A stretch of DNA of 18,737 nucleotides from a virus, in the IMG/VR virus record IMGVR_UViG_3300027987_000266, one strand, 5' to 3'. Position 1 is the stretch's first letter. Each line of letters begins with the position of its first letter. Position numbers and translations under genes: made by a program. Shown here piece after piece: positions 515-18,511 of this stretch. The notes beneath the pieces are model-generated. The model was not told where the DNA came from, searched no databases, and saw nothing but the letters and a program-made list of their open reading frames with translations.

Positions 515-618
515 TTGTTTCTCCTGAATAGACGGCTGAGGAGTCGTAGAATCCAGTGCTGCTTTTTGGGCTTGATGCGGGCTTGCAGGAGTTTGATGGC
601 TGTTTCTTCGTCCGTCAT
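511..618 (-). CDS. small basic protein, 35 aa (MTDEETAIKLLQARIKPKKQHWILRLLSRLFRRNK). It is below the 60-aa ORF-track cutoff and so absent from the track.
   Basis: ATG 618..616 overlaps the TGA of the upstream gene (ATGA). Its TGA 513..511 overlaps the ATG of the downstream gene (ATGA). It fills a 100-nt gap that is otherwise unexplained. Codon use matches the neighbours. Confidence 0.4.
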   Translation of the reverse strand: MTDEETAIKLLQARIKPKKQHWILRLLSRLFRRNK

Positions 619-1070
619 TTCGCCTCCGCTGGAAGGAATCGGCGGCAGGTGTCGGGCTTAATGGGTGTCTTGATTTGGACGAATCGCCGGTCTGGGTCGG
701 CTAAAGTTGCGTGCACTCCGTCGATCTCCATGATCGTGTACTCTTCGTCGTTGTGAATCAGTGTGCCGTGATCACGACTGATAACGACGAGATCACCGGG
801 AGTGCCGGGATCGACGACGTCGGCCAGCAGAATCCAGTATTGGTTGTTGGCGTGTTCCAGCTTCTGCGTGGACTGCAGGAGGTAAAACTCGAAATCGACT
901 GTTCCGGCCATTTCAGCACTCCAACCAAGGGATTTCAGGGCGGTTGCGGCGAGTCCTTGCTTGATGCTCGCCGCCATAAGTGCTTGTTGCGGATCGTCTG
1001 TGGCGAGATAAATGGAGTCGTAGACGCTTCCGATTGAGTTCCTGATTCTCCAAACGTGCATGTTAGTCAT
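615..1070 (-). CDS. hypothetical protein, 151 aa from ATG 1070 (the ORF track extends it to 1106). Member of the C-terminal DLADP-module family (..YTIMEIDGVHATLADPDRRFVQIK..)
   Basis: ATG 1070..1068 sits in a gATGAc-taa context that overlaps the upstream stop by 8 nt. Long ORF. Confidence 0.6.
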   Translation of the reverse strand: MTNMHVWRIRNSIGSVYDSIYLATDDPQQALMAASIKQGLAATALKSLGWSAEMAGTVDFEFYLLQSTQKLEHANNQYWILLADVVDPGTPGDLVVISRDHGTLIHNDEEYTIMEIDGVHATLADPDRRFVQIKTPIKPDTCRRFLPAEAK

Positions 1071-1488
1071 CGTAAAGCTCCGACACAGGACGTCCGAGAA
1101 CGACAAGGTGGACGTTCATCCGACGAAGTATTGTCTCGATACTGTTGGGATCGGAGAGATCGTGACGACTAGTTCCAGCCCAAGATTGATTCGCTGGATC
1201 GAAGAATTGTAGCCGCAACTGATTCTCATCCAGTCGCAGGTCTGCGAACGGCCGCTCGTATCCGGCAGTGAGTCGCCAGTGGGACGCGGGGTGGCGGACC
1301 GGGCGGCTGTTGTCGTCGATGAAGTAAGTGTCGGGATTGAGGGAGACGCTGCGTGGTCCCTTGATTACGACAACTTCACCGCTGGGGCGGTAGAATCTGA
1401 CGTACTCGCCCACTGAAAGCTCTAGGTGCGGTTCTGCGACGTAGCCCTCGAAGGACTCGACGAGTGCTTTGGCTAAGGCTTCGAGCAT
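1063..1488 (-). CDS. hypothetical protein, 141 aa. DLADP-module family (..LRLQFFDPANQSWAGTSRHDLSDPNSIETILRRM..)
   Basis: ATG at 1488. There is a 16-nt overlap with the upstream gene. ORF track. Confidence 0.65.
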   Translation of the reverse strand: MLEALAKALVESFEGYVAEPHLELSVGEYVRFYRPSGEVVVIKGPRSVSLNPDTYFIDDNSRPVRHPASHWRLTAGYERPFADLRLDENQLRLQFFDPANQSWAGTSRHDLSDPNSIETILRRMNVHLVVLGRPVSELYDD

Positions 1489-1877
1489 GGTGCGACAGGA
1501 ACGACCGTCAGGTTGTCTACGAGCAGGTCGTCGATCCTTTCTTGGGCTGCTTCTTCTGATGGGTAGAGCGTCGCTTCGAAGAAGTTGCGGTGGAATTCGT
1601 CGGCTTCGTCGTCGCCGTTGATGTAATGGTCGTACCAGAGATTGCGGGCTTCGTCGTAGATGACGTAGGCTGCAGCTTCGATCTTCAACGCTCTGACGGA
1701 ATATGCTGTGTCAGTGCCGACCACGTGCCAAGCGACGACAGCACCTTGTGTCCAGTCTTCCGGCAATTCCGTCAGTTCGGCATTCGCATGCTTTTCTGCA
1801 ATTGCTCGTAGTCCGTCGATCGTGTTCGGACCGTAGACTTCGGTGCCGTTTGGTCCTTCGATTGTTAGAACGTACAC
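1473..1877 (-). CDS. hypothetical protein, about 134 aa from GTG 1877 (VYVLTIEGPNGTEVYGPNTIDGL...). The ORF-track extension to 2120 is a Ser/Thr/Asn-rich alternate frame of the next gene.
   Basis: AGGAGActgacc GTG gives a strong SD at correct spacing. The stop of the upstream gene (1888) lies just upstream. Confidence 0.55.
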   Translation of the reverse strand: MYVLTIEGPNGTEVYGPNTIDGLRAIAEKHANAELTELPEDWTQGAVVAWHVVGTDTAYSVRALKIEAAAYVIYDEARNLWYDHYINGDDEADEFHRNFFEATLYPSEEAAQERIDDLLVDNLTVVPVAPCSKP

Positions 1878-1887
1878 GGTCAGTCTC

Positions 1888-2886
1888 CTAGGAATTGGGG
1901 AGTAGTGAAGAAAGTCGTTGGTCGATCTGAGCGAGTTGTTGTAAGTGTTCTTCTTTGCGGCGGACCATGTCGTTGTAGAGTTGGTGGTCCTGTTCGACGA
2001 GTTGCTTGGCGACTGCGACGATGTTCTCGGGAGTGCACCAAGGGTTTGTTGGTTCGATGTTGGCTTCGAAGCGGACGCCGATTTGGCTGGTCCAGGCGAT
2101 GTGGCTCGGACTGATTGCAACGGTGAGTGTGAATTGGGAGTAGACGCAGCCGTCGCCGTTTGTTGGTCGTTGGCCGTCGAGCCAGGCGTCTTTGACGGCT
2201 TTTGTCTGGTCGGCGTAGAGTTGGCTGCTCTCCCACGTGAGGTAGGCGTGGCCGTCTCCGCCTTTGCAGCGTTTGATGGCTGGTCTGTCGTCGTTCCACC
2301 AGACTTTCTTGACTTCTTCGGCGATCAGGTTTTGGATGGCTCCTTTGTCCATGGGCGGGGTGCCCTTGAACGTGTCGACTCGTTTGAGGAAGTCGGCGAT
2401 GGACTGTGAAGCTTCGTATTGGCACTTGGAATCATGTTCGCCGCGTCCGTAGGAGTGGTTTTGGTCGCGGACTGAGACGTAGATTCTGTTGCGGCTTCGA
2501 CTGCTGGCTGCTCTTGTGTGGACTTTGACGCCGAGTTGGGTGTGGGTGAAGCGGAATGCTCCGGTGATTTCGCTGTACTCGTTCTGCTTGAATCCTCGTT
2601 CGAGCAGGCCGTCGCGGAGTTCGCGGATTTTGTCGAGTTGTGGTGGGTAGAGTTTGTAGCTCTTGCCGTCGCGGGTGGCTGAGTAGTCGATTTCGTCTGG
2701 TTTGGTGGGTGTGACCGGTTCGCCTTTTTCTGCGATGGCGATCAGGTCACTTTCGTCGACTTCGAGGGATTTGGCGACGCGGTATGATTCGATTGGTTCG
2801 AGTTTGCCACCAAAGGTTTTTAGCCAGTGGTGTGGGTTGACTCGGTTTTCAGTTGCTAGATTTGTGGCACTTGTCATTAGTGTCAT
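1888..2886 (-). CDS. hypothetical protein, 332 aa (or 329 aa from ATG 2877, which has GAGGA 9 nt upstream). It is the largest ORFan in the window. I did not recognise a domain.
   Basis: Long ORF with no alternative. Start is 1 to 10 nt after the upstream TGA. Confidence 0.7.
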   Translation of the reverse strand: MTLMTSATNLATENRVNPHHWLKTFGGKLEPIESYRVAKSLEVDESDLIAIAEKGEPVTPTKPDEIDYSATRDGKSYKLYPPQLDKIRELRDGLLERGFKQNEYSEITGAFRFTHTQLGVKVHTRAASSRSRNRIYVSVRDQNHSYGRGEHDSKCQYEASQSIADFLKRVDTFKGTPPMDKGAIQNLIAEEVKKVWWNDDRPAIKRCKGGDGHAYLTWESSQLYADQTKAVKDAWLDGQRPTNGDGCVYSQFTLTVAISPSHIAWTSQIGVRFEANIEPTNPWCTPENIVAVAKQLVEQDHQLYNDMVRRKEEHLQQLAQIDQRLSSLLPNS

Positions 2887-2889
2887 TCC

Positions 2890-3234
2890 TCAGACCCTCA
2901 GGACTTTTTTCAGGTGTTCTAATACGGTGTCGGGGAATTGTGGGTCGGCGAGATCGAACTCGACGCGGTTGGCGACGTTGTTACTGAGTGCCAGTACGCC
3001 GTCCCAACAGAAAACCGTTGTGCGATGTAGGCAGATTCCAGGACTCCCTCCTCGTTTGCCAGTGGTGAGAAATCTGAGAGTCGGTGCCGAAGTTCGCTCT
3101 TTGTCGTGGAGAGTGCGGACGACGTCGAGCAGAATGTCGTTGGCGAGACAGAGTTCGTCGATCAGCTTAATCACAGCGTCTCGAATCTCGTTCTCGATGC
3201 CTTTCGCTTTCTTGATGGCCTTGCCCCTTGGCAT
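2890..3234 (-). CDS. hypothetical protein, 114 aa from ATG 3234 (MPRGKAIKKAKGIENEIRD...). DLADP-module family (..NRVEFDLADPQFPDTVLEHLKKVLRV)
   Basis: GGAGGcgactgATG gives a strong SD. The TGATG start/stop shares 1 nt with the upstream gene. The ORF-track start at 3270 would overlap 36 nt. Confidence 0.6.
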   Translation of the reverse strand: MPRGKAIKKAKGIENEIRDAVIKLIDELCLANDILLDVVRTLHDKERTSAPTLRFLTTGKRGGSPGICLHRTTVFCWDGVLALSNNVANRVEFDLADPQFPDTVLEHLKKVLRV

Positions 3235-3713
3235 CAGTCGCCTCCGCAGGGTCCGCCCCCTTGACGACAAGCGTACTCGTCCTCGAACTCGTTCGGCCCG
3301 TTGGGATTGCAGTATGGGCAGCCAACGAGGACTTCCGACAAGCCGATGATCTTGACGTCGTCGGTGCCGAGTCCGATGCGGACTTCACCGTTGCTGACGT
3401 CGATGATGATCGGTTCGCGGCCTTCCGGGGTGACGACGAGGCCGTGTTGGTCGGTCGTGATCTCGAACTTGACGGTGGTTCCGCTGGACGCGTCGGTGGC
3501 GGTGTGGTTGATCGGATGGTTTGCCGAGCCACCGAGCGGCACGGCGAGGCCGATTCGGTACTCCGTCTGATCCTCGTTGACTTCGACGAGGCCGAGGTCT
3601 GCGAGAATGAGGACGTCGGGGCGAGCGTCTTCGCCAAGGTGAGTCCAGTTGCCGCCTGAGGCGTAGTCTTGGGCGAATCGCAGCAGTCGTTGTTGGTTGC
3701 TTGTGAGCGTCAT
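3234..3713 (-). CDS. hypothetical protein, 159 aa (MTLTSNQQRLLRF...) with a Cys/Gly-rich C-terminus (CPYCNPNGPNEFEDEYACRQGGGPCGGD). The ORF-track extension to 4109 is alternate-frame low complexity.
   Basis: TAAcATG junction with the upstream gene. The region downstream of 3713 has non-low-complexity composition. Confidence 0.6.
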   Translation of the reverse strand: MTLTSNQQRLLRFAQDYASGGNWTHLGEDARPDVLILADLGLVEVNEDQTEYRIGLAVPLGGSANHPINHTATDASSGTTVKFEITTDQHGLVVTPEGREPIIIDVSNGEVRIGLGTDDVKIIGLSEVLVGCPYCNPNGPNEFEDEYACRQGGGPCGGD

Positions 3714-3714
3714 G

Positions 3715-4161
3715 TTACCCCGCAAAGAATCGAAGGAGGTTGCTGAGAATGGCCAGGATGGCTCCGGCGAGGGCGACCTTCGCCCAGAAGATAGCTCGCT
3801 TTGAGTGCTTGATGGCGAGTTCGCTGTGGTGCATCGCTTCGCCTTCATGCCACTGTGCCTGTTGGCGGTGCCATTGTGGGGAGTTGCTGCAGATTCGCTT
3901 GATCTGGTTGTCGGCAGCGTTGTTGAACTCACCAAGATGGTAGTACCAGATACGCTCCGTCTCTGGTCGTGTAGTGTCCACTTTGTCGGTGAGCCAGAGC
4001 AGGTCGACGCACTCTGGCTCGTTATTCGCCTTGCAGAGCGAGATGCGGAAGAGGGCTTGGCCGTCGAGTTCGTAGTAGACGCTGGTGGCGTCTCCTTTGG
4101 TGGCCTCAAGGCCGTGGGTTCCGCGAATGTGTCGGATTGTCTGTTCGAGACTGTGGTTCAC
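3715..4161 (-). CDS. hypothetical protein, about 148 aa from GTG 4161. The C-terminus has a hydrophobic segment (AIFWAKVALAGAILAILSNLL), so it is probably membrane-anchored.
   Basis: GTGA overlap with the upstream stop. GAAAGG SD-like sequence lies 6 nt upstream. The track extension to 4374 is an Arg-rich alternate frame. Confidence 0.5.
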   Translation of the reverse strand: MNHSLEQTIRHIRGTHGLEATKGDATSVYYELDGQALFRISLCKANNEPECVDLLWLTDKVDTTRPETERIWYYHLGEFNNAADNQIKRICSNSPQWHRQQAQWHEGEAMHHSELAIKHSKRAIFWAKVALAGAILAILSNLLRFFAG

Positions 4162-4496
4162 GTTGAGCCTTTCGTGTTCTTGAGATCGAAGAGACCCTTG
4201 GCAACGCTCACGACGCCAGCGACAGAGGCGTCGAGGTTGGCGTCGGGAGAGGCGGGATCGCCGTGTTCGAAAGTGACCCACTCGTAGTTCTTGCTGCCGT
4301 GAAAGCCAGAAGTGCCACAGATCAGCCCGATGCGAACGTTCGTGTCGTACGCTTCGACTCGTGGACTTCCCCACACGTTGTCGAGCATCAAGCCGTGATT
4401 GCGGCGAGTGAACCAGATTCTGGCCTTCTCAAGCTCGCCTTCGATTGTCTTGATGAGAATCTGCTGGACTGTGACTGGTTTCTTCTGTTTGGCCAT
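4158..4496 (-). CDS. hypothetical protein, 112 aa
   Basis: ATG at 4496 with GGGAGA SD. Clean ORF. Confidence 0.7.
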   Translation of the reverse strand: MAKQKKPVTVQQILIKTIEGELEKARIWFTRRNHGLMLDNVWGSPRVEAYDTNVRIGLICGTSGFHGSKNYEWVTFEHGDPASPDANLDASVAGVVSVAKGLFDLKNTKGST

Positions 4497-4559
4497 TTTG
4501 CTGGTCTCCCGAACCGTGCGTTGTGTGTCTGCACGATTGTTGCAGAGACAGGCTCTCGG

Positions 4560-4895
4560 TTAACCCCCGTTGCCGAGATTCGCCACCGAGTCTTTGATCC
4601 ACTCCTTCACTTGGCGGGCGTTCGTGATGTCGTCTACTTCCTTCTTGCCGTTTGGGGTCTTGGTGAAGGCGTCGCTGTCCGGCTGGTAGTAGGCAGAACG
4701 GTGAATCTTACGACCCCGCTTGAGGCCGTCGCCGGGAGTGATCTTGATTGTCTCCATCTCAACCCGAAGCTTCGGGATCGTTTCAGGCTCCGCAATGTCT
4801 GCACCGGACTTGCCATGAAGGTGGAGTGTTGCTTTGATGGCGAACTGTAGCTGGAATGTGGTCTCTGCGATTTGGATTGACTGCGGTTTGCTCAT
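4560..4895 (-). CDS. hypothetical protein, 111 aa
   Basis: ATGA overlap with the upstream gene. Followed by a 63-nt non-coding gap. Confidence 0.7.
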   Translation of the reverse strand: MSKPQSIQIAETTFQLQFAIKATLHLHGKSGADIAEPETIPKLRVEMETIKITPGDGLKRGRKIHRSAYYQPDSDAFTKTPNGKKEVDDITNARQVKEWIKDSVANLGNGG

Positions 4896-5176
4896 AGAAA
4901 TTCGGTGACTCCTTCGACAATCGCGATGCTGTCCTGATTGTACTGTTGGCGGATTGTGGTGAGGCGTTTCTTGATGTTAGCCAGTTGCTCTTCGCTGTGG
5001 ATCACGCAGACCCAGGCTGCGTTCTGCCACTTGGCCTCCGGTGCTGAGAATCCAGAGAACTGAATCTCAGTGTGATTCACCCACAGAGCCTCGTTGATAT
5101 GACGAATGTAGTCCGCCCACTTGGATTGGCCGAGCTTGTCGTCGCTGTTCCCAATACAAATCGTGATCGTTTTCAT
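4892..5176 (-). CDS. hypothetical protein, 94 aa
   Basis: ATGA overlaps at both ends. Confidence 0.7.
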   Translation of the reverse strand: MKTITICIGNSDDKLGQSKWADYIRHINEALWVNHTEIQFSGFSAPEAKWQNAAWVCVIHSEEQLANIKKRLTTIRQQYNQDSIAIVEGVTEFL

Positions 5177-5553
5177 AGCTTGTCCCTTGTGTCGACACGC
5201 AGAATCAAGTCCTGCTCCGGGTATTCGAGCTGATAGCCGTACCGCCGAGTGTGGCGGTAGCCGCTGTGGTAATTCCTGTATCGCAACGCTTTCTGAAATC
5301 CGTCCTTCTCGCGGTCAGACAGCACTCTGACGACGGCTCGGACCCTGTAGGTGACGTCCTGCCAAGTGATGCGGACCGGCCGTTCAACGAGAGAACCAAC
5401 GACCCAGGAGTGCTTGTCTGGGACGTCTTCGATTTCAACGAGAACGAGGTCGGACGCCGGATCGTCGAGATGCTGCTCGCTCATCGTCCATTCTTCGAAC
5501 GAGCCGCTTTGCAGCTGTTTGACGAGAGCATAGACGTCGATCCGCTTTGTCAT
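5173..5553 (-). CDS. hypothetical protein, 126 aa
   Basis: ATGA overlaps at both ends. Confidence 0.7.
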   Translation of the reverse strand: MTKRIDVYALVKQLQSGSFEEWTMSEQHLDDPASDLVLVEIEDVPDKHSWVVGSLVERPVRITWQDVTYRVRAVVRVLSDREKDGFQKALRYRNYHSGYRHTRRYGYQLEYPEQDLILRVDTRDKL

Positions 5554-6095
5554 ACCACCAACTCCACGTCGAAAGTCGGTGTGCCCTCCTTCTTCTGTTT
5601 ACGCTTCCCGTCCAACTGCTCCCACTCGACGGGCAGTTCTGGGTACTTGCTTCTGCCGAGGCGGTCCTTCTCCGGTCGGTACATTCCGAACATCATCCAC
5701 TGTTCGTTCTCCGGATGCTCCGGAATCGGGATCGTCTCCCACGTGAAGCCAATACAAGGGCGTGGCGAACTCCCTGGCCCGCTCGTCGTGATGCCCTGAC
5801 TGATCCACCAATGACGCTCCCAATCACTCGCAAGGTGCCAAATCCTGTCCCGCCAAATGACCGGCGTCAAGACGCACGAATCACCGGGAATGCGGAACGG
5901 ATTCACCAAAAGGCAGGACTCTTGGTCCGGATCGACTGGCACGCCGCGTTGGACAACCAAGCAACAATCGATGCAGCCGTACGCGTCGTCCGGGCTTTTG
6001 ACGTCTGAGGGGATCAGGCCGTTCAGCTGCCGCCAGTCCGTGATCTCGTAGACTTTCTTGACGAGCCAGATTTGGGCTGTGAGCTTTCTACTCAT
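5550..6095 (-). CDS. hypothetical Trp/Cys-containing protein, about 181 aa from ATG 6095 (the track gives 6122)
   Basis: GGAGG lies 13 nt upstream of ATG 6095. An 8-nt overlap with the upstream stop is more typical here than 35 nt. Confidence 0.6.
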   Translation of the reverse strand: MSRKLTAQIWLVKKVYEITDWRQLNGLIPSDVKSPDDAYGCIDCCLVVQRGVPVDPDQESCLLVNPFRIPGDSCVLTPVIWRDRIWHLASDWERHWWISQGITTSGPGSSPRPCIGFTWETIPIPEHPENEQWMMFGMYRPEKDRLGRSKYPELPVEWEQLDGKRKQKKEGTPTFDVELVV

Positions 6096-7129: not shown

Positions 7130-7138
7130 GCCGAACTG

Positions 7139-7420
7139 TTACACAGAGGGCGTCGAGGTAAACGACGCGACCAGAGAGAGTTCTACGGCGACATAGCGAG
7201 GATCAACGCCGGATTGAGTGGTGAAAGACTGTATGAACTCGTCTTTGACGAAGCAGTTCTCGTCGAAGTGATCTACGAGATTCCAGGACGGTGCTCGATC
7301 CCCGTGCCATTTTGGCTGCCCAACGGTCCTGTCGAGTCCCCAATGGTCGTCGTCGAGTCGAATGAAAGCGACGACCTGATTCGATTCGCCGCCACGATGG
7401 ATGATCACCTTTCGAGGCAT
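7139..7420 (-). CDS. hypothetical protein, about 93 aa from ATG 7420 (the track gives 7477)
   Basis: GGGAGGG lies upstream of ATG 7420. The 7477 start would overlap the upstream gene by 73 nt. Confidence 0.5.
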   Translation of the reverse strand: MPRKVIIHRGGESNQVVAFIRLDDDHWGLDRTVGQPKWHGDRAPSWNLVDHFDENCFVKDEFIQSFTTQSGVDPRYVAVELSLVASFTSTPSV

Positions 7421-7845
7421 CGTGCTGGTACCCTCCCAAACTTTTTCTGCATGACGATCGCCAAGCATTCCCACCACGTGTCCTCGTCGCCCTCAGGAGG
7501 CTCCGTCACGAGTCCCCTCGCTTTGCATGCAACGAGTCGCGGAGTTTCAATCTCGATCCATCGCCAAATCCGGTCGAACAGGTGAGGGTCGGCGAACATG
7601 AAGTCCCGCCACAGGTCGTAGCCTGTAGTCACTGAGATGCCCTCTGATGCGATGCGAATGCTCCAGTTGACTTCGACGTCCATTTCTCGATACTCGCCGC
7701 TTACGTTCCACGACGTCTCATCGAAATTCGGCAAGTTCGTCATATGCGGTGGATTATGGCTCTCGTAGTTCTTGCCGACTGTGTGGCCAGTCCGTCGCCG
7801 TGCTTGCTCTTTGAGTTCGTCGGCGATGATTTTGTGGATGTTCAT
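7405..7845 (-). CDS. hypothetical protein, 146 aa. DLADP-like module (..WRDFMFADPHLFDRIWRWIEIE..)
   Basis: ATGA overlap at the start. Confidence 0.7.
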   Translation of the reverse strand: MNIHKIIADELKEQARRRTGHTVGKNYESHNPPHMTNLPNFDETSWNVSGEYREMDVEVNWSIRIASEGISVTTGYDLWRDFMFADPHLFDRIWRWIEIETPRLVACKARGLVTEPPEGDEDTWWECLAIVMQKKFGRVPARCLER

Positions 7846-8186
7846 TGTCTCGGTATCGGCGTGTAGAATTCGACTAGCCTGTCGATGCTCGTTGGGTCGT
7901 TCAGGTCAACTGTCAAGCACTCGCCAATTGAGAGCCACGTGTCGTTGAGGTTTACGTTGTGGTGTGTGTGCCCGCATTTGAACTTGAGTGGTTCGCCGCT
8001 CCAAATCAGCTGTTGGTCAATCCCTTTGATCTTGATCGGCTCGATCTTGACGACGCCGAAGATGTGTTCCTGTTCCGGATTTCGTTCGTCGTCGTCTGGT
8101 GCCCAATAGTGGACTTCGACGCCTGTCCTTTCGGTGATCTCAATGACGATCGCTGTGAGCGTGTCGTTCTTTAGAATTCTGTCCAT
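7842..8186 (-). CDS. hypothetical protein, 114 aa. DLADP-like module (..CLTVDLNDPTSIDRLVEFY..)
   Basis: ATGA overlap at the stop. 16-nt overlap at the start. Confidence 0.7.
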   Translation of the reverse strand: MDRILKNDTLTAIVIEITERTGVEVHYWAPDDDERNPEQEHIFGVVKIEPIKIKGIDQQLIWSGEPLKFKCGHTHHNVNLNDTWLSIGECLTVDLNDPTSIDRLVEFYTPIPRQ

Positions 8187-8857: not shown

Positions 8858-9006
8858 GCCCTATCTGAAACTCGGTCTGGCAGAAATCGCTTCCAGAGCC
8901 AGTAGTCGAGTGCCTTGTTGAGTGTTGACTTTCTCCATGGCGGCTGCTTTTTTGGCGGCAGGAGAAGCCAGCGTTTGTGGATTTTCTTTGCCTGCCTCTT
9001 TTTCAT
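8851..9006 (-). CDS. small basic Trp-rich protein, 51 aa (MKKRQAKKIHKRWLLLPPKKQPPWRKSTLNKALDYWLWKRFLPDRVSDRAW). Absent from the ORF track because it is under 60 aa.
   Basis: ATG 9006..9004 overlaps the TGA of the upstream gene (ATGA). The stop overlaps the ATGgtg start of the downstream gene by 7 nt. It fills a 145-nt gap. Confidence 0.4.
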   Translation of the reverse strand: MKKRQAKKIHKRWLLLPPKKQPPWRKSTLNKALDYWLWKRFLPDRVSDRAW

Positions 9007-9359
9007 AGTTCTGGATCGTCTGTTACGATGCGTCCGCCACCATCGTACCGCTTGAGAATCACGTAGTTGTGCAAATGGCGGAAGAGATTGGGGTCAGCGT
9101 AGTCGACGGGGTAAACTGAATTGGACGGATGGCCCGGAAGCACGTACGCTCTCGTTGGAGTGCACCGGATTTGATAGAACATCTGGCGACGCCCGCTTGG
9201 AGTCTTGTCGTCTCGAACGTAGTAGTTGCCGCAGACGTTCCACGAGTCCATGCTGTGACGCTGGATTTTGACGCTGTGGTCGCTGACGGTCCGCTTGATC
9301 CATTCTTCGATGCTGATGGCGATCTGGCAGACTGTGTGTTGTCGGTCGTACGTTCTCAT
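9003..9359 (-). CDS. hypothetical protein, 118 aa from ATG 9359. DLADP-like module (..VYPVDYADPNLFRHLHNYVIL..)
   Basis: ATGA overlap with the upstream stop. The track extension to 9377 is less likely. Confidence 0.6.
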   Translation of the reverse strand: MRTYDRQHTVCQIAISIEEWIKRTVSDHSVKIQRHSMDSWNVCGNYYVRDDKTPSGRRQMFYQIRCTPTRAYVLPGHPSNSVYPVDYADPNLFRHLHNYVILKRYDGGGRIVTDDPEL

Positions 9360-9538
9360 GCTGCTTTCTGCCAACAAGTCTTGTCGTTGATCTCTTCGTC
9401 GTAATAGCGGAATTCGGGTTGTCGGCCTTCGTTCTTGAGTGCGGCGATAATCCGGAAAAGGGCCGCTGGCTCTTCGGTCTTGATGGTGGCTGTCATTCCG
9501 TCGAATTTGACTTCGACTTCGGTGGTGTTGGTTCGCAT
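9356..9538 (-). CDS. hypothetical small protein, about 60 aa (start uncertain: 9538 has AAGGA-8nt-ATG; 9496 gives an ATGA overlap and 46 aa)
   Basis: ORF track. Candidate starts all have SD or coupling signals. Confidence 0.4.
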   Translation of the reverse strand: MRTNTTEVEVKFDGMTATIKTEEPAALFRIIAALKNEGRQPEFRYYDEEINDKTCWQKAA

Positions 9539-9891
9539 GGGTTCCATCCTTTGTGAACGTGGTTGTGAACTTTCTCGAAAAACTCAGGATCGGCGAGATC
9601 GAACTCGACGATTGGCTGTGGCCCTTCTGGCTTCTCTTCCTTCTGTGACCACCTGCCGGTAATCAGCCTTCGCTGCAAGTAAAGCTTGCCGTTGGTAAGT
9701 CCAAAGGCGAAGCAAGGAGACACTCTCCAGCTGTCGTCGCTTATAACCGGCTTTGCACAGACGTAGCTCTCATGAGTGTCTGGGGTTTCGCCGCTGTGGA
9801 GTTCGCACTCTTCACAAATCTGATGCCACAGCATCCGATTCTCGAAATCCATCGAGTGCAGCTCTTGTCCTTTGAAGACGGTCACTTTCAT
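9493..9891 (-). CDS. hypothetical Cys/His-containing protein, 132 aa. DLADP-module family (..PIVEFDLADPEFFEKVHNHV..)
   Basis: ATGA overlap at the start. Confidence 0.7.
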   Translation of the reverse strand: MKVTVFKGQELHSMDFENRMLWHQICEECELHSGETPDTHESYVCAKPVISDDSWRVSPCFAFGLTNGKLYLQRRLITGRWSQKEEKPEGPQPIVEFDLADPEFFEKVHNHVHKGWNPCEPTPPKSKSNSTE

Positions 9892-11895: not shown

Positions 11896-11903
11896 GCAGT
11901 GTT

Positions 11904-11959
11904 CTCCGTTGCGGGGGCGTGGTGATCTGTACACAAGAGTGTTACAAGACCCAACGGAG
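11904..11959 (-). promoter_or_regulatory. Inverted repeat CTCCGTTG(c)GG ... CCCAACGGAG flanking about 38 nt. In the minus-strand mRNA the 3' arm contains the GGAG of the SD of gene 11335..11895.
   Basis: 8 bp plus a bulge plus 2 bp of complementarity, read from the sequence. The SD GGAGAA (revcomp of 11902..11907) lies in the arm. Confidence 0.3.
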
Positions 11960-11973
11960 CGTAAAACGCAGAG

Positions 11974-12528
11974 CTAACCCATTGTCGAGTACACGTGGAG
12001 AATGTCGAGTTCTGTGGCCGCCTTCTTGGCATGCTCTACAGCCAGCTCGATGCTGTCAGGGCATTCCAGATAGTAAGTGCGAGGCCCAAACTCCGTGAGA
12101 TGGTCGTAGTCCTTCCGTCTGTCTGGCCAAATCGCTTCGTCAACGTGGATGTTCGGACGATCGCACTTATAGTTGGCCTGGACTGTAAGCGGGCAGGCTC
12201 GCATCACGGAGTCACAAGCAACCCTGTACTTCCCGATACGCCAGTGTTCCGGTTCCGGCGTTAGATAGAGAATTGCGGGTCCTGGCTTTACGTCCTGGTC
12301 CTCACTCTTGGGTGTCGGTTTGTGACGCTGAAAATCGAGCCAAATGAAGCCCTCGACCACTGTGAGATTGAGCGGTCGTAGCTCTTCGGCTATACCGAGG
12401 ATTACGGCGAAGTTTTCTTTGTGGGCGTCGAGGATGCCGCCGTTGACTCTTGTCTCGATCTTCAAAGTGCTGGCCTTTCGTTCGGATAGCCGAGTCTCTT
12501 CAAGTGCCAGTGTAGCTTTTTGATGCAA
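11974..12528 (-). CDS. hypothetical protein, 184 aa from TTG 12528, or 164 aa from TTG 12465 (TTGA overlap with SD-like GAAAGG). C-terminal variant of the module (..YYLECPDSIELAVEHAKKAATEL..)
   Basis: ORF track. Start is uncertain. Confidence 0.5.
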   Translation of the reverse strand: MHQKATLALEETRLSERKASTLKIETRVNGGILDAHKENFAVILGIAEELRPLNLTVVEGFIWLDFQRHKPTPKSEDQDVKPGPAILYLTPEPEHWRIGKYRVACDSVMRACPLTVQANYKCDRPNIHVDEAIWPDRRKDYDHLTEFGPRTYYLECPDSIELAVEHAKKAATELDILHVYSTMG

Positions 12529-12920
12529 GATTCTATGGAGTCAGGATCGGCTAAGTCCCACTTGTACGGACTTGTGGGAGTATCGCCGACGACTCGTGCT
12601 CCGAATTCGTCGTGGCCGATCTCTCGGTGGAGTACCAGTTCGAGACGGTTACCACGGATTTTGAACGTGGCGGCCTTGAAGTATCGGTCTTTGAAGGCTT
12701 CGATTTCTTCGGCTGTCTCTGCCAGACTCGCATCAGCACCACGGTAAATGTCGTAGTGGGCGAAGAGCGTGCCGACGCCTCTTTTGATGAGCAGGTGGTC
12801 CCACGAAGATAGGTACAAGCGAAGGGCGTCGGCAATAGTGCCGACGCCCATCGAATTCTCTGCTCGACGTCTGCTTTGTTCGCTTCTGTCGATTGCTTGT
12901 TGGGACGATCTGACCGTCAC
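12462..12920 (-). CDS. hypothetical protein, 152 aa. DLADP-module family (..KAATFKIRGNRLELVLH..YKWDLADPDSIESCIKKLHWHLKRL..)
   Basis: GTGA overlap with the ligase stop. Confidence 0.7.
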   Translation of the reverse strand: MTVRSSQQAIDRSEQSRRRAENSMGVGTIADALRLYLSSWDHLLIKRGVGTLFAHYDIYRGADASLAETAEEIEAFKDRYFKAATFKIRGNRLELVLHREIGHDEFGARVVGDTPTSPYKWDLADPDSIESCIKKLHWHLKRLGYPNERPAL

Positions 12921-15202
12921 GCTTCGACCGGCTCCTTTTTCGGCAGTTCGGCCTGACCATCCAGCACTTTGCGGATGAAGGCCAAGCTGACGATCTGCGT
13001 GTAGCCGTTGGCTTCCGCATTTTTGGCCTTGTTGGTGACCTGCGTGGCGTCTTTCTGGATCAGGAAGTCGGGAGAGGGCTTGGACTTGGCCACGCCGCTC
13101 GTGAAGACTCCGCCCTTGGCTTCGATCTCGTCCATGTAGGCACGAGTCCCGGTGATGCAGAAGGTGAGTCCGGCGAGGGGCAGATTCGGGTCTGCTTGTC
13201 CGTTGCCGGTGGTCGCGGTTGGGGCGGGCTTTGCTGCGGGGTAGTCGATGGTCACGCCGACTGCCAGCAGCTTGTCGATCAATCCACGGCTCTCTTTGAT
13301 GCCGTGAACCACCGCGTCGCGGATCGTGTCGCCGAGTCCCTCAATCTCCATCTTCGCGAATTCGTCAGTGTCCAGCCAGTCTTCGAGCTTGTCGAGACGG
13401 CCACCGGCTGCGTCGCGGAGCAGGATCACGCGTCGGCGTCCGAGCAGGTCGATACCGAGTGATCCGAGGAAGACCTCCAGCTTGAGATTCCGCTTGTTCT
13501 GGATGTTGTTCACGATCGTCTCGGCTCGCGATCGTCCCACTCGCCCGCCGCTGTCAAGCGTCAGGTTCTCCAAATCCTCAGGCTTGAGGTTGTAGAGATC
13601 GGCGGGATCGCTGACGATGTTGTTGTCCCACATGGCCTTGAGGATGCCGTCACCGATGTTCAGGATTCCGGTTCCCTTCTTCGACGAACCGATCCACTTG
13701 TCGACTTTGCCCTTCAATGCCTCAGGGCATTTGTCGGCTTGTGAGCAGTACGTCACAGCTCCCTTCTTGCCGCGATAGTTGCGGGTGGTCGGCTCGCCGC
13801 AGGACGGGCATCGCTTCGGCTCTTCGATTGGCTTGCGATTCGGGGATTCGGTGACGCACCGAATGACCTTCGGGATAATGTCCCCGGCCAGCACGACCTC
13901 GACTTCGTCGTTGATGGCGACGCCGAGCCGCTCGATCTCGTCCCAATTGTTCAGCAGTGCGTGCGTCACGTTGACGCCACCGATGCGGACTTCCTCGAAG
14001 ACGGCGGTCGGGTAGATTCCTCCGGTGTGGCCGACGCTGAGAATGACGTCCTTGATTGTCGTCGTGTTCGATTTGTGCGGGAACTTGACGGCACGAGCGT
14101 ACTTGGGCCGCAGCCGCGTCTTGATGTCGTCGGTGATGAATGGAAGGTGGTAGGCGATCTCATTGAGGACCACCACGATTCCGTCGATTTCGAACGGCAG
14201 CTTGTCGCGGTTGGCAACTGTCTCGGTGTAGAAGTCGTTGAACTCGTCGACAGTTGTGCAGACTTTGTACGGGACGGGCTGGAAGCCGAGGCCGCGAAGG
14301 CTCTCCATCTTCTCCGCTTCTGTGTGGAACTTGGCGGCGTCGTGCTGCTCATCGCCATCGAACTCGACATTGAAAGCGATGAAGGTGATTCTCTCGGAAT
14401 CCTGGCCGTCGTCGCGACCGAACACGCCGTTCCCGATGTTGCGGGGATTGCTGCGGTCGGCTTCGGGAATCTGATCGAACGGCTGACCGGCGTCACGCTC
14501 GACGACCTCTTTGTAGTCGGCGACGTACATGACCGCCTCACCGCGAACGTCGCAGCTGACGGAGTGCGGCAGGATTGTGGGCAGTCGCCGGAAGTTGGCT
14601 CCGTTCACCGTGATGTCTTGGCCGGTCTCGCCGTCACCGCGTGTGGCGACACGGACCAGTTTGCCATTCTCGTAGGTGGCACAGATGCTTCCGCCATCGA
14701 CCTTGAGAGAGGCGAAAATCTCGACAGGCAGATCGGCGTCGGGCACGTCGTTGACAATCCCCTCTGCCGCGAGACGCTGGCGAGTGGCTTCGACGACGTC
14801 GGCTGCAGCTGAGTGCAGCTTCGTCGTTACGTCTTCGAGCCACGGCTCGTAACCAGCGATGCCGTTGTCGGTGTTGTCGAGCGATCCCATCGGGATGTTG
14901 TGCTTGACCTTGTTGCGAAGGTCGCCAGCGTCGAACGGGAGGCCGACTCGACCAATCCGCTCGTCATTGGGATCGAGTTGTTTCAGAGCGGGCCGCAACA
15001 GATCGTAGTCGGAGTCCGGCATGATCTGAGACGAGCCTGGGCGGTAGTAGGCGACGTCGGCTTTGTCGATGATCAGCCGAAGCTCGTCGGCCGTCAGTTC
15101 GTTGACGGCGTAGCCTGCTCCGTCTTGGTAGAGCTTGAAGAGTTCGACTCGACGATCGGACTCACGGATCAGGTTGAGCCATTGCGGTGCAGCGTTCGGC
15201 AT
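12917..15202 (-). CDS. ligA: NAD(+)-dependent DNA ligase LigA, 761 aa
   Basis: Adenylation KxDG block SLKVDGGSICATYENGKLVRVATRGDGETGQDIT aligns closely with E. coli LigA. N-terminal Ia-like YRPGSSQIMPDSDYDLLRPALKQL. Four-Cys zinc finger CPSCGEP...YCSQADKCPE. HhH region GLGDTIRDAVVHGI. C-terminal BRCT-like LAGLTFCITGTRAYMDEIEAKGGVF... Confidence 0.93.
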   Translation of the reverse strand: MPNAAPQWLNLIRESDRRVELFKLYQDGAGYAVNELTADELRLIIDKADVAYYRPGSSQIMPDSDYDLLRPALKQLDPNDERIGRVGLPFDAGDLRNKVKHNIPMGSLDNTDNGIAGYEPWLEDVTTKLHSAAADVVEATRQRLAAEGIVNDVPDADLPVEIFASLKVDGGSICATYENGKLVRVATRGDGETGQDITVNGANFRRLPTILPHSVSCDVRGEAVMYVADYKEVVERDAGQPFDQIPEADRSNPRNIGNGVFGRDDGQDSERITFIAFNVEFDGDEQHDAAKFHTEAEKMESLRGLGFQPVPYKVCTTVDEFNDFYTETVANRDKLPFEIDGIVVVLNEIAYHLPFITDDIKTRLRPKYARAVKFPHKSNTTTIKDVILSVGHTGGIYPTAVFEEVRIGGVNVTHALLNNWDEIERLGVAINDEVEVVLAGDIIPKVIRCVTESPNRKPIEEPKRCPSCGEPTTRNYRGKKGAVTYCSQADKCPEALKGKVDKWIGSSKKGTGILNIGDGILKAMWDNNIVSDPADLYNLKPEDLENLTLDSGGRVGRSRAETIVNNIQNKRNLKLEVFLGSLGIDLLGRRRVILLRDAAGGRLDKLEDWLDTDEFAKMEIEGLGDTIRDAVVHGIKESRGLIDKLLAVGVTIDYPAAKPAPTATTGNGQADPNLPLAGLTFCITGTRAYMDEIEAKGGVFTSGVAKSKPSPDFLIQKDATQVTNKAKNAEANGYTQIVSLAFIRKVLDGQAELPKKEPVEA

Positions 15203-15286
15203 GTGTTTTGCGTCCTATGCTGGAGGTTGGGAATCTGCTTTGTTGTTGCAGGGCGAATACTCCCCGTTAATCAAATACCGCAAGAC

Positions 15287-15793
15287 TCACTCGGTGATTC
15301 CTGTGGCTTCTCGCCACTTGAGAAGGCGATAGTTGCCCTTGATTGTCGCAAAGAGGCGGTCCATGCTGTCGGGTGCGTCAAGGTCGATCTCTACGGTGTC
15401 GTCCACCGTATCGATTTCTTGGTATCCCGTTCCCTCGCACTCCCAACAACTGTCGTCTCCGTCTCCCCGCCGCTCAATTTCTTCCGGACAGGTGCACTGA
15501 CCAGTGCCCTCACAGTCCGGGCATTCTTTTTGGCTTACGTCTGTGAAGACGAGTTGGCAACGCAAACGTGGATTCGCCCGCAGCTTGAGAATGCAGACGC
15601 GGGACCAAACTGGCTTAGCGTGCCCTAGAAGAATGGAGAGGCCGTCCTCACAAGTCCGCGTCATATCCTGAAACAGAGCGAGAACGGCATGAGTTCTGTG
15701 GACTGTAACTCGCATGTACGGCCACGACCGTAGCTCGTCGGCAATTGCTCTTTTGAACTCTTTGGGGATTTGTTTTGTGCTAACGTCTCTCAC
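15287..15793 (-). CDS. DnaJ-type zinc-finger (CxxCxGxG x2) protein, 168 aa, with a C-terminal DLADP-like module (..VEIDLDAPDSMDRLFATIKGNYRLL..)
   Basis: CPDCEGTGQC and CWECEGTGYQ match the DnaJ CR-domain repeat CxxCxGxG. GTG start with a 14-nt overlap. Confidence 0.6.
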   Translation of the reverse strand: MRDVSTKQIPKEFKRAIADELRSWPYMRVTVHRTHAVLALFQDMTRTCEDGLSILLGHAKPVWSRVCILKLRANPRLRCQLVFTDVSQKECPDCEGTGQCTCPEEIERRGDGDDSCWECEGTGYQEIDTVDDTVEIDLDAPDSMDRLFATIKGNYRLLKWREATGITE

Positions 15794-16439
15794 CCTTACT
15801 CTCGTCGTACCAGAGGTCCGGTCGCTGTTTAAGAACCCACTCGAAGGTGAGCGGCTCTGTCTCTTTCGACGGATCGTACTCTTCCTCGATCATCACGGCG
15901 ATTTCAAGAGCTTCGGCCAACAGTTCGTCTTTGTTCCGTTGCTGGATTGGCTTGTGCTGCATCCCCTCGAATTCGAGTTCGTGAAGCGTCTGCTTGAGAT
16001 CGAACGGTTTCCACTGGTCGATCATCGCCCAATACTGGCGTCCGATAACGCACATGAGGATTCTGACGGAGTGCAACCGAGTCGGATCGCCTTTCTTCGT
16101 CTCTTCGGCGGCTTGTTTCTCTGCCCACTCCCAAATCTGATCGGTTGTAGTGCGAGATTCACCCCACTGGTCGACTTCCCACAGAAACGAGCCGTTGTTG
16201 GACTGTTGGCCGAAGTCCTGGTACTCGATGCCAGTCTCTCCGTCCGCATCGTCGAGTTGGCCGTTCGGTTCGTACGTGATCTCTTCGACGTCCTTCTCCT
16301 TCCAGCCGAGTGCTCGCAGACCGTCTTTCAGGACTTCGAGCCATTCGACATTCTTGCTGTCGAATACGAGGACGCGACGCTCTCTGTCTTGACTGGCGTC
16401 CTCTGGTGTAAACGTCTGGCGGATTTTGAACTTGCTCAT
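15780..16439 (-). CDS. hypothetical acidic Trp-rich protein, 219 aa
   Basis: AGGAGtaacATG gives a strong SD. The gene starts immediately after the TAA of the upstream gene. Confidence 0.75.
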   Translation of the reverse strand: MSKFKIRQTFTPEDASQDRERRVLVFDSKNVEWLEVLKDGLRALGWKEKDVEEITYEPNGQLDDADGETGIEYQDFGQQSNNGSFLWEVDQWGESRTTTDQIWEWAEKQAAEETKKGDPTRLHSVRILMCVIGRQYWAMIDQWKPFDLKQTLHELEFEGMQHKPIQQRNKDELLAEALEIAVMIEEEYDPSKETEPLTFEWVLKQRPDLWYDESKGERR

Positions 16440-16440
16440 G

Positions 16441-16869
16441 TTACTCCTGCGTCTGCACTGACCAATGGGTTTTGGTTCCTTCCCGATTCACGCTCGCTTT
16501 CCGGAGTGCGTCGTCCAACAGGGACAAGGAGAGGGCGACGGTCTTCGGATCGTCGATCTCGTCGGGATTCAGTTCGATCAGGTTCTTCGTCTCGACGGTG
16601 ATTGGCGGGTGTAGACGGTCACTCAGGAGCAGCTTGAGGTCCGAGCCGCTGCCAAGATGCACCGGACCGAGACAGTCGGGATTCGTGCCACCGCCAACGG
16701 TCTTGACCATCGCTGGCTCGCTCGGTCCGAAGTTGGCTTTTGTCCTGATTTGTTCATCGAACTCGACAATGTAACCCTCAGCATAACGGCTGAGGAAGTC
16801 GAGAAGGATTTGTGTGCCGCTACTCCTGCTGAGGTTGCGGCTGCCGCTGACGTCTACAAAGATTCTCAT
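16441..16869 (-). CDS. compact vWA/MIDAS-like protein, about 142 aa from ATG 16869 (MRIFVDVSGSRN...VGGGTNPD...LKLLLSD)
   Basis: ATGA overlap with the upstream stop. D-x-S-x-S at the N-terminus, GGGT about 50 aa later and LLLSD about 25 aa after that follow MIDAS spacing. Motif-level only. Confidence 0.55.
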   Translation of the reverse strand: MRIFVDVSGSRNLSRSSGTQILLDFLSRYAEGYIVEFDEQIRTKANFGPSEPAMVKTVGGGTNPDCLGPVHLGSGSDLKLLLSDRLHPPITVETKNLIELNPDEIDDPKTVALSLSLLDDALRKASVNREGTKTHWSVQTQE

Positions 16870-17234
16870 GTTTGTCTCCCGAACTCGGCGATTTTCGCCA
16901 AAAGTGATTGCTTGTCCGGACCAGCAAGGCCGGTCTCGGTGTCCAAGTACACACCAGTGTCGAGGCATTGTTGGCACAAACACCATGCAGCAGCGAAGAC
17001 GTCGAAGCTGTGCCGATCCGTGTCAATGTACCACACCGGATGCCGCTCGTGGCAGCAGTCGCAAGGCCCACTGTCCGGCTCGTTCATCGGCTGGATCAGC
17101 AGATTCTCAGGACGCACGCGGAGACGCTGAATGAGATCGACGATCGGCTGTAGAATCTCACCGATGCCCTCGTCGGGGCGTCCGTCGATCAGACCTTCGA
17201 GTGTGTCAATGGCGTCTTGTACTTCGCTCGACAT
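16866..17234 (-). CDS. hypothetical Cys-rich protein, 122 aa (..CDCCHERH..CLCQQC..)
   Basis: AGGAGAaacaacaATG gives a strong SD. Confidence 0.7.
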   Translation of the reverse strand: MSSEVQDAIDTLEGLIDGRPDEGIGEILQPIVDLIQRLRVRPENLLIQPMNEPDSGPCDCCHERHPVWYIDTDRHSFDVFAAAWCLCQQCLDTGVYLDTETGLAGPDKQSLLAKIAEFGRQT

Positions 17235-17250
17235 TGTTGTTTCTCCTGCT

Positions 17251-17265
17251 CTTTTGTTACAAAAG
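17251..17265. promoter_or_regulatory. 15-bp perfect palindrome CTTTTGT-T-ACAAAAG in the 42-nt gap upstream of the SD of gene 16866..17234. Candidate operator/promoter element.
   Basis: Read directly from the sequence. The loop is too tight for a simple hairpin, which favours a dimeric protein-binding site. It overlaps the recurring TTGTTACAA-AGACC motif. Confidence 0.3.
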
Positions 17266-17276
17266 ACCGTCGCTGG

Positions 17277-18044
17277 TTAATCAGAATCGTGGAGATTCTT
17301 CACGAACAACAGGATGTCGTCATAGCAGTCGGGGCTGAGAATGTCGAACACCTTGACTCTCCGCATTTCGATCGATTCCGGGTCAGTCTTGATCTCGTCA
17401 ATCGGATTCTCTTCCCAGGCGACGATGATCTGGCTCAAGTGGATTCGAACGAGGATTTTCTTGTTGCCGACGAAGGTCTGAAAGCTCAATCGACGATACT
17501 CACCACCATTCCTCGATCGTACCTCGTCTTTCACGTTGTCGATCTGAAAATCGAGTTCCCATGATTCGTTCAAGATCAAGAGCAACGGGAAAAGAATCGC
17601 CAGTTCTTCGCTGAATCCTCCTTTCCATCTGCTCCAATCAACGTGATTGGCAAGCTCCATTGGAGTCTCACAGCCATCTTGCGGCGAGAAGCCACCCATA
17701 GTCCACGAAGCTTTGTGATAACGCCACTTGCCGTCTTCGTGCCAACCGCCCTTGCTCCAAATCTCGGTGTTCGCACCGGGAATGAATGGGACGTTGCGTC
17801 TCCGCTCTACTGTTCCGCTACAGTATCCTGCGTTCGCCACCATGAATTCCTGGTAGATGCGAATGAAGAGAAGCTCTTCCGTCGTCGGCATTTCGCTGTT
17901 GGCTTGCAGACAAAACAATGGCATCGGCGGCTGTGTGAAGACCATGAAAAGAGAATTGCCGTCACTCAAGCCCTCAGTCTGGCCAATGCCGTGATTGAGA
18001 AGAGTCTCGACGTGTCTGTTGACCTTGTCAGATTTAGTCATCAT
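17277..18044 (-). CDS. hypothetical protein, 255 aa. DLADP-like module (..RRVKVFDILSPDCYDDILLFVKNLH..)
   Basis: ATGA overlap with the upstream stop. Confidence 0.7.
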   Translation of the reverse strand: MMTKSDKVNRHVETLLNHGIGQTEGLSDGNSLFMVFTQPPMPLFCLQANSEMPTTEELLFIRIYQEFMVANAGYCSGTVERRRNVPFIPGANTEIWSKGGWHEDGKWRYHKASWTMGGFSPQDGCETPMELANHVDWSRWKGGFSEELAILFPLLLILNESWELDFQIDNVKDEVRSRNGGEYRRLSFQTFVGNKKILVRIHLSQIIVAWEENPIDEIKTDPESIEMRRVKVFDILSPDCYDDILLFVKNLHDSD

Positions 18045-18511
18045 TTGCGGTGATAATCCAAATAGTCGAGAATGTGGTCAAAGCAGTCGGGATCTGCCAG
18101 ATTGAAATCACGGCTGTTGTCGTACAACGCCATGCTGATACTCACCTTGTCGTCGCTGACCTCTATCGTGGCGAAATGGTCGCTCTTGTACTGCCCAAAC
18201 AGTCGTCGAGAATTCTTACCAACGACCTCGGACTTGATGCCAAAGCTCTCATTGATCAGACGACAAATGTCGTCCACGACATAGTGGTAACACTCTCCTT
18301 CTTGCCAGACAAGCTCACCGGCCGCCTCTGTGAGCTTGCCGGTGTGGTGCGGATCGTGGTATTTCACAACGTGAATCGAAGAGACATACTCACTACCGCA
18401 ACAGGCATGGCGTGCCTTCTGCTTCGCATCGTCGATTGTGTCAGCCTCAACAAAATGGTACGCTGTCGGCAGCAGACCACAATCGTGAGGACAGATGGCG
18501 ACGAGCTTCAC
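18041..18511 (-). CDS. hypothetical Cys/His-rich protein, 156 aa. DLADP-module family (..DHFATIEVSDDKVSISMALY..RDFNLADPDCFDHILDYLDYH..)
   Basis: GTGA overlap with the upstream stop. Confidence 0.7.
   Translation of the reverse strand: MKLVAICPHDCGLLPTAYHFVEADTIDDAKQKARHACCGSEYVSSIHVVKYHDPHHTGKLTEAAGELVWQEGECYHYVVDDICRLINESFGIKSEVVGKNSRRLFGQYKSDHFATIEVSDDKVSISMALYDNSRDFNLADPDCFDHILDYLDYHRK

Follow-up and report, generated by a model that had tools for sequence, protein, structure and literature searches.

Several known phage systems resemble, in part, the gene family that we describe here. T7 Gp1.2, a dGTPase inhibitor (PDB 7u65_G), and P7 of the Xanthomonas phage Xp10, an RNA polymerase inhibitor (6j9e_J), are proteins of 66-83 amino acids (aa) built on a three-stranded antiparallel sheet packed by a helix (a beta3-alpha core), and both act by binding a host protein. 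In T4, the capsid targeting sequence is a short linear peptide at the N-terminus, which the prohead protease cleaves off. At a different scale, Bacillus phage G carries ~35 zinc-ribbon genes, whose products have been proposed to bind DNA (PMC7824862). The DNA analysed here is an 18,737-nucleotide (nt) stretch of viral origin (IMG/VR record IMGVR_UViG_3300027987_000266; below, "the window" means this whole stretch). It holds a multigene family, specific to its lineage, whose products are small soluble proteins (81-255 aa); the genes lie in an accessory part of the contig that consists mostly of ORFans. Repeated duplication and strong divergence produced the members, and what they still have in common is predicted to be a self-contained C-terminal mini-domain of ~45 residues, in which three strands are followed by an [FVW]-D-L-A-D-P connection and an amphipathic helix. 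We refer to this mini-domain as the module.

The module is predicted to have the same beta3-alpha core as T7 Gp1.2 and Xp10 P7, but those proteins have no sequence similarity to it (11-16% identity), lack the DLADP signature and are encoded by single-copy genes, whereas the family described here has expanded. As in Bacillus phage G, what appears to be one large phage genome holds many diverged copies of one small domain whose function can only be guessed (PMC7824862); here, however, the domain is a different one, the copies are fewer (9-12) and they are clustered in one block. We conclude that this is a real and previously undescribed sequence family with a generic fold. As to its role, we put at about even chances the reading that these are small binding proteins that diversify around a stable C-terminal scaffold and likely serve host interaction or anti-defence.

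The window is part of a 111,253-bp Joint Genome Institute (JGI) metagenome contig (3300027985, Ga0259481_10000192), of which 37 kb (record positions 74,010-111,253) were read via two overlapping loci; adding 83,395 to a window position gives the record position. All 36 proteins called in the window are encoded on the minus strand, to which every window coordinate given below refers, and their genes are tightly packed, with many stop/start overlaps. An earlier note on this DNA had quoted twelve peptides carrying the shared motif, all of which are indeed encoded on that strand where it had placed them. It had also named a motif frequency no higher than in shuffled proteins as what would count against a family, and here the difference is large: LADP occurs in 5 of the 36 window proteins (0.12 expected from residue shuffles), [DN][LYF][ASN]DP in 7 (0.06 expected) and the helix-start pattern [DSAC]P[DEQNHT].[FIMYL][DERQ]..[ILVHWF] in 10 (0.32 expected), and none of 5000 residue shuffles reached the observed count for any of the three. 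The motif lies 15-31 residues from the C-terminus (60 in the protein of 7405-7845). The hairpin pattern that the note saw before it is equally real: it aligns across members and is predicted to form strands 1 and 2.

This conservation acts at the level of the protein. The conserved Leu, Ala, Asp and Pro are encoded by differing synonymous codons in different copies, which points to selection on the protein and not to a repeated DNA or RNA element. Short DNA repeats are common to only the two closest pairs of copies, there are no Rfam or tRNA hits, and the counts of promoters and terminators equal chance; together with the codon differences, these results led us to reject a DNA- or RNA-level repeat.

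Membership was judged by leave-one-out profile searches with a 12-sequence alignment of the module, from which the tested gene was removed together with its ortholog, against a background of 62 further real proteins plus 420 decoys made by reversal or shuffling. Eight genes each ranked first, with expectation values (E) from 1e-9 to 0.01. The best value, 1.1e-9, belongs to g24 (18041-18511; 156 aa), which has a Cys/His-rich N-terminal part and its module at 18044-18178 (HFATIEVSDDKVSISMALYDNSRDFNLADPDCFDHILDYLDYHRK), closely followed by g36 (9493-9891; 132 aa; module 9541-9717, ending IVEFDLADPEFFEKVHNHVHKGWN; E 2.2e-9). In g53 (2890-3234; 114 aa; E 1.6e-6), the module (2893-3024) comes after a long N-terminal helix, and the 24 nt that encode VEFDLADP are 96% identical between this gene and g36. 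Next come g56 (1063-1488; 141 aa; module 1093-1251; E 8.6e-6) and g31 (12462-12920; 152 aa from a GTG at 12920; module 12486-12677, in which a long loop separates strands 2 and 3; E 1.9e-4), which also match each other in BLASTP (E 1.2e-4). The module of g42 (7405-7845; 146 aa; E 5.5e-4) lies at 7540-7671 and is followed by a 45-residue tail; BLASTP pairs this protein with g24 (E 2.4e-4 over 38 aa). The remaining two, both at rank 1, are g38 (9003-9359; 118 aa; module 9045-9185; E 7.2e-4) and g41 (7842-8186; 114 aa; module 7851-7967), where an E of 0.01 compares with 0.022 for the best decoy, making g41, as judged from its sequence, the weakest of the eight. A profile from the four clearest copies recovered 1063-1488, 9003-9359 and 7405-7845 unaided, with 7842-8186 borderline.

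A ninth gene, g25 (17277-18044; 254-255 aa; module 17280-17459, ending VKVFDILSPDCYDDILLFVKNLHDSD), is a probable member. A profile built without it does not recover it, but it matches its neighbour g24 in BLASTP (E 0.019 over 35 aa), both proteins contain PDC[FY]D.IL, and a 23-nt DNA repeat is found at 17311-17333 in the one gene and at 18069-18091 in the other; from these matches, g25 is probably a tandem duplicate of g24. The count of at least 12 genes in the earlier note is therefore too high: it stands for eight solid members and this probable one, whereas the other three that it listed (15287-15793, 11974-12465 and 615-1070) score within the range of the decoys and are only possible. Including weak candidates outside the window, the tally is eight solid, one probable and three possible members within the window and about three possible ones beyond it (g60, g61 and g62). 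For the eight or nine, the shuffle counts, leave-one-out ranks, BLASTP matches and codon variation all agree with the note's view that these are true paralogs and not the product of a chance motif.

The obvious objection is that so short a motif could be a generic strand-to-helix junction that evolved by convergence in genes that are not paralogs. Nearly the same local string (D-L-A-D-P-x-S-I-E) did turn up in our pattern scans where a strand leads into a helix in unrelated proteins (short-chain dehydrogenases, dehydrogenase-like open reading frames, ORFs), as well as in LVIVD-type repeats and in the MPNWCxN family described below, and the three weak candidates, like g60-g62, score no better than decoys. 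However, the eight solid members are alike over ~45 residues including the hairpin, in a similarity that survives leave-one-out testing, and the motif counts are 40-100 times the shuffle expectation, with the motif at a fixed place in the protein. The members also cluster in one 18-kb block, and the motif is not present in the 23 genes of the 9 kb upstream of the window. Convergence is thus exceedingly improbable, and for the core eight the shuffle counts and leave-one-out ranks exclude it in its pure form.

AlphaFold2, run on nine paralog segments, predicts a 45-residue unit with a mean predicted local distance difference test (pLDDT) score of 92.4, in which strands at residues 3-7, 11-16 and 21-26 are followed by a helix at 32-44. 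The hairpin plus helix of the earlier note is thus borne out, with one further strand: its hairpin corresponds to strands 1 and 2, which are joined by a D/N/G turn, and after a loop that varies from almost nothing to ~20 residues comes strand 3, ending in [FVW]-D. The short connections between strands imply that the sheet is an antiparallel meander. L-A-D-P-x forms a five-residue connection from strand 3 to the helix. According to the DSSP assignment of the model, the cap position of the helix is the residue after the Pro (D, N, T, E, Q or H), and a D or E three residues later completes a capping box (D/N/T-x-hydrophobic-D/E), a term from established knowledge of helix capping. The helix is amphipathic, and the strands alternate between hydrophobic and polar residues in the member sequences, a pattern that suggests that one face of the sheet packs on the helix while the polar face is exposed. 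The conserved residues are therefore those that build the fold (the strand hydrophobics, the Asp-Pro and the capping box), and we read the motif as the signature of a scaffold, structural rather than catalytic. The recurrence of nearly the same string in unrelated proteins, noted above, agrees with this reading. The full-length model of g53 (pLDDT 71; predicted template modelling score, pTM, 0.42), with helices at 3-46 and 100-112 and strands at 51-58, 66-77, 80-85 and 91-94, repeats the three strands and helix of the module and adds one strand to the sheet and a 44-residue N-terminal helix.

The earlier note could not match the module to any known family, and searches of Pfam, PHROGs, NCBIfam, PADLOC, PDB sequences and BFVD bear it out. 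No PADLOC, NCBIfam or PHROGs model matched the members significantly, the best E of the module profile against PDB sequences was 0.13, Foldseek found nothing below E 0.37 among the predicted viral structures of BFVD, and a literature search for "DLADP" returned nothing relevant. One Pfam candidate, DUF1737 (PF08410), was rejected: it matched a single member (9493-9891) with an E of 0.23 and 11.8 bits, compared with a cut-off of 24. The likenesses to known folds that do exist are resemblances of a very common small motif.

Some of these likenesses bear on a possible nucleic-acid-binding role, in which the module would be either an AP2/integrase-type beta3-alpha domain or the remnant of an RNase H-like nuclease or transposase, and the family a set of regulators. 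The first beta-beta-beta-alpha segment of RNase H-like proteins (the IS110-family ISCro4 transposase 9t56_A, the exonuclease domain of RB69 polymerase, retroviral integrases and RuvC) resembles the module in that a strand and then a helix come after a hairpin whose turn is D/G, and the zinc-ribbon expansion of phage G, with its 35 copies proposed to bind DNA, would offer a parallel (PMC7824862). The details do not fit, however. The strand-1 column of the module holds E, K, R, G, N or C, so that there is no conserved catalytic Asp or Glu, and the proteins end 15-31 residues after the Pro (60 in g42), leaving nothing to supply strand 4, the following helix and strand 5. For ten members, the Pfam DEDD transposase, RNase H and AP2 models gave no match at E up to 1, and the corresponding RNase H-like/IS110 test against PDB sequences gave none with E below 0.1. 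Relative to the AP2/ERF and integrase N-terminal type of beta3-alpha fold (PDB 6sy0_A), the module lacks both a match to the AP2 model and a basic sheet face: the members are mostly acidic, with a median isoelectric point of 5.55 and a module net charge of -6 to +3. We find a nucleic-acid-binding role quite improbable.

In contrast to the C-terminal module, the N-terminal parts of the members are not detectably related, as the earlier note had proposed. BLASTP similarity between members covers only 20-38 C-terminal residues, and hhalign of two ortholog pairs produced an alignment limited to the 23-residue motif. Their contents differ in kind, being Cys/His clusters, a long helix or all-beta. 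Orthologs outside the window are nonetheless conserved over their full length (59-61% identity), which implies that the N-terminal parts are functional.

It is conceivable that the homology extends over the whole length, so that each protein is one divergent domain whose N-terminal two-thirds have drifted beyond recognition. In size, most members differ little (114-156 aa), many have an initial amphipathic helix and a beta-rich middle, MAFFT aligns a weak Y-x-h-h-D-D element upstream of the module in five of them, and the fourth strand in the g53 model extends the module's sheet. Against this stand the restriction of the hhalign alignments to the motif, the silence of BLASTP outside the C-terminal stretch, the differences in kind between N-terminal contents and protein lengths that range from 81 to 255 aa. 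We regard this explanation as rather unlikely, and it and the diversifying family of binding proteins that we favour are not mutually exclusive.

How rare the family is became apparent from a profile search run exhaustively over 1.84 billion representative proteins, keeping hits at E <= 0.001, which returned only 12 hits: seven are the window's own proteins and five lie outside. The ortholog of g24, P0008 on contig L052, is 59% identical over its full length. An ortholog of g31, P0002 on contig L003, came from a word-indexed search instead of the exhaustive profile search and is 61% identical, the first 24 residues included. P0002 also bears on where g31 begins: in the public annotation the gene is called from an internal ATG (giving 129 aa), but P0002 keeps the 23 residues upstream of that ATG and overlaps its own ligase by 4 nt, just as 12462-12920 does, making the GTG at 12920 the likelier start. 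Two further proteins are independent members: P0011 (99 aa, on a contig of 39% GC, beside a dCMP-deaminase-like gene, a DEDDh exonuclease and a PurA-like gene) and P0012 (81 aa, on a contig of 42% GC), whose upstream neighbour holds a second copy, NFDLHDPDLVDQIKKWL. Both are scarcely longer than the module itself, which speaks for the module as the unit of function. The outside orthologs and these independent members indicate that the family is older than the lineage of the window, tends to occur in tandem and is very rare.

Other searches added no members. Word-indexed searching with 12462-12920 returned only itself and one ortholog, and with the full-length alignment A2 only four sequences, all of which were already in the query alignment. 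A DNA pattern scan of IMG/VR for F-D-L-A-D-P-x-x-hydrophobic-[DE] gave 42 matches, about the number estimated for chance, and no convincing member; a related pattern gave at least 120 matches in the metagenome collection, to unrelated proteins that included dehydrogenase-like ORFs, with no new member among the matches listed. Two profile hits, P0009 (694 aa) and P0013 (1311 aa), were rejected as false positives, with three to four matched stretches that comprise only strand plus DP. We take these two to be LVIVD-type repeat proteins, a group to which the window proteins do not belong: they hold a single C-terminal copy followed by a helix, not many tandem repeats.

The gene content of the locus appears to be in flux. 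The related contig L052 (2047 bp) has, in order, a g21-like gene, a 74-aa gene, the ortholog of 18041-18511, an ortholog of g26 (16866-17234) and a ligase that is 72% identical to that of the window, but no counterparts of g25 (17277-18044) or of g27-g29 (16441-16869, 15780-16439 and 15287-15793). Gene content here thus turns over rapidly from one relative to the next, which is also how accessory regions behave, and the host-takeover or anti-defence role that the earlier note had suggested would be consistent with such variability.

The shared part, always C-terminal and at a fixed distance from the end, joined to unrelated N-terminal parts, invites another interpretation, the main idea of the earlier note: the module could be a common docking or targeting domain that brings different N-terminal payloads to one shared partner, such as the prohead (for packaging and injection), a phage compartment or importer, or a host hub. 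The analogy behind this idea is the internal proteins of T4, which are likewise a hypervariable accessory set united by one short shared element. The recurrent acidic cluster around the start of the helix speaks in its favour, and a block of at least nine genes would make sense for cargo under common regulation. However, the conserved residues are mostly at core or capping positions, unrelated proteins (short-chain dehydrogenases and LVIVD repeats) contain this local motif too, and the minimal members of 81 and 99 residues have essentially no cargo; these three points leave a docking tag somewhat disfavoured. In addition, no candidate for the common partner was identified, and known phage targeting tags such as that of T4 are short linear peptides, whereas the shared element here is predicted to be a folded domain of ~45 residues. 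A docking or targeting role of this kind seems distinctly unlikely to us, and slightly less likely still is the more specific version in which a beta3-alpha docking domain hands a dozen unrelated effector parts to one machine (the capsid, for co-injection with the DNA, a compartment built by the phage or a single host hub). Were docking true, the family would represent a new phage system for effector delivery or recruitment, recognisable by its DLADP signature.

We return, then, to the diversifying family of small binding proteins. On this account, the module would serve as a stable scaffold, and specificity would reside in the parts that differ between members, namely their N-terminal extensions, the loop that joins strand 2 to strand 3 and the polar sheet face. 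Most likely, the members would bind or inhibit proteins of the host or of competing elements, for takeover or anti-defence, although both the binding and the timing of expression are matters that we can only infer. Diversification would have proceeded copy by copy, by analogy with T7 Gp1.2 and Xp10 P7, beta3-alpha inhibitors that act singly. The 9-12 diverged copies within 18 kb account for roughly one in four to one in three of the genes in that stretch, while phage genomes seldom keep many copies of one gene; so many diverged copies suggest strong pressure to diversify, of the sort typical of genes that meet host defences or machinery.

Several points weigh against this account. Functional annotation was found for no member, and no structural phage genes were seen in the 37 kb of the contig that were read. 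The high AlphaFold2 confidence for the module depends on an alignment of the paralogs themselves, and the full-length g53 model, at the scores given above, is only moderate. Moreover, the acidic residues conserved as D..DP[DEN]..[DE] might form a genuine site for binding or for a metal and not be purely structural. Whichever role proves correct, absence from Pfam, PHROGs, NCBIfam, PADLOC and the sequences of solved structures, combined with extreme rarity, would make this a new family-database entry, and the family would form a compact set of candidates for anti-defence and takeover screens.

For the three possible members within the window, the sole support is the position of the motif near the C-terminus. 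In g29 (15287-15793; 168 aa), only the helix-start pattern matches, in TVEIDLDAPDSMDRLFATI near the C-terminus, and the profile E of 0.47-7 is within the decoy range. Upstream, in the N-terminal part and where the hairpin would stand, it has two CxxCxGxG motifs (CPDCEGTG and CWECEGTG) that resemble a DnaJ zinc finger; the match to Pfam DnaJ_CXXCXGXG is weak (E 0.17, 12.6 bits, compared with a cut-off of 32.7). The helix-start pattern of g32 (11974-12465, 163 aa as called; given as 11974-12528 in the earlier note), in YYLECPDSIELAVEHA, is at the right distance from the C-terminus, with a profile E of ~0.6-3, which is not significant. Finally, g57 (615-1070; 151 aa) has a hairpin plus HATLADPDRRFVQIKTPIKP, and LADP is present, but a proline-rich stretch stands where the helix part would be; its profile E (0.2-0.9) is not significant either.

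Beyond the window, g60 (90 aa; N-terminal part at 1-170) has its C-terminal CELEAPTCIEDAIEYLQRML outside the window, and in the extended contig its profile E of ~0.2-1 was not significant. Two more weak candidates, g61 (ARPEDPQFFDVIDDF) and g62 (FIDLQEPNAIDKIEQHL), lie past the low-coordinate end of the window, which is downstream in the direction of transcription. On the upstream side, g21 (L005:8304-8687) ends in the motif-like HVEADPNAFWAVLYSAY, but its ortholog at L052:1-69 reads HVEAEGNAFWAIMYSAY; since the Asp-Pro is not conserved there, we did not count g21 as a member.

A few other proteins are reminiscent of the family. At 9356-9547, a 63-aa protein (EVEVKFDGMTATIKTEEPAALFRIIAALKNEG) passes from a hairpin directly into an E-P helix; it could be related to the module as a degenerate or minimal form, or have no relation to it. 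Upstream of the window, a 134-aa protein (L005:4480-4884) that ends LDLRSRRYKEAAEWAAEY is 30% identical over 77 aa (E 0.012) to the region of 17277-18044 that precedes the motif, and may be a copy that has lost the Asp-Pro. A conserved viral protein of 175-178 aa that begins MPNWC.N and has an acidic tail, found on L015, L017, L035, L036, L038, L041 and L049 (all IMG/VR) and on L079 and L133, has [DE]FDLADPDSLD ~40 residues from its end; it matches the profile in the motif only, which we take as coincidence. On the contig of P0011, an adenylosuccinate-synthetase-like gene beside that member (L009:1443-2162) has QWGSCGKG at the place where PurA has GDEGKG, which raises the question whether it might encode a PurZ-type enzyme of a phage with modified DNA.

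As for the wider setting, the gene layout, the phage-like ligase and helicase, and the neighbours of the outside members suggest that the contig belongs to a large lytic phage. A phage collection gave no match to the window DNA or to the protein of 12462-12920, and IMG/VR scans queried with two family members gave none. Across the 37 kb, matches to Pfam and PHROGs are nearly nil, the exceptions being a ligase dependent on nicotinamide adenine dinucleotide (NAD) and a helicase downstream of the window. The NAD-dependent DNA ligase (12917-15202; 761 aa; Pfam DNA_ligase_aden and OB_DNA_ligase) sits in the middle of the paralog block, where it overlaps the start of 12462-12920 by 4 nt, and is only ~28-30% identical to the nearest phage ligases (those of Goslar and of Microcystis phages). 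The helicase, of the ResIII/SNF2 type (phrog_16, E 4e-32), comes after a 496-aa protein (L007:16822-18312) that contains HEFAHGLG and has a sub-threshold match to matrixin-type metalloproteases (Pfam E 4e-4). Upstream of the window, at L005:6940-7586, lies an adjacent pair of paralogs (110 and 105 aa; BLASTP E 5.8e-7) that is unrelated to the module family; the presence of this second pair suggests that tandem duplication is common in this genome.

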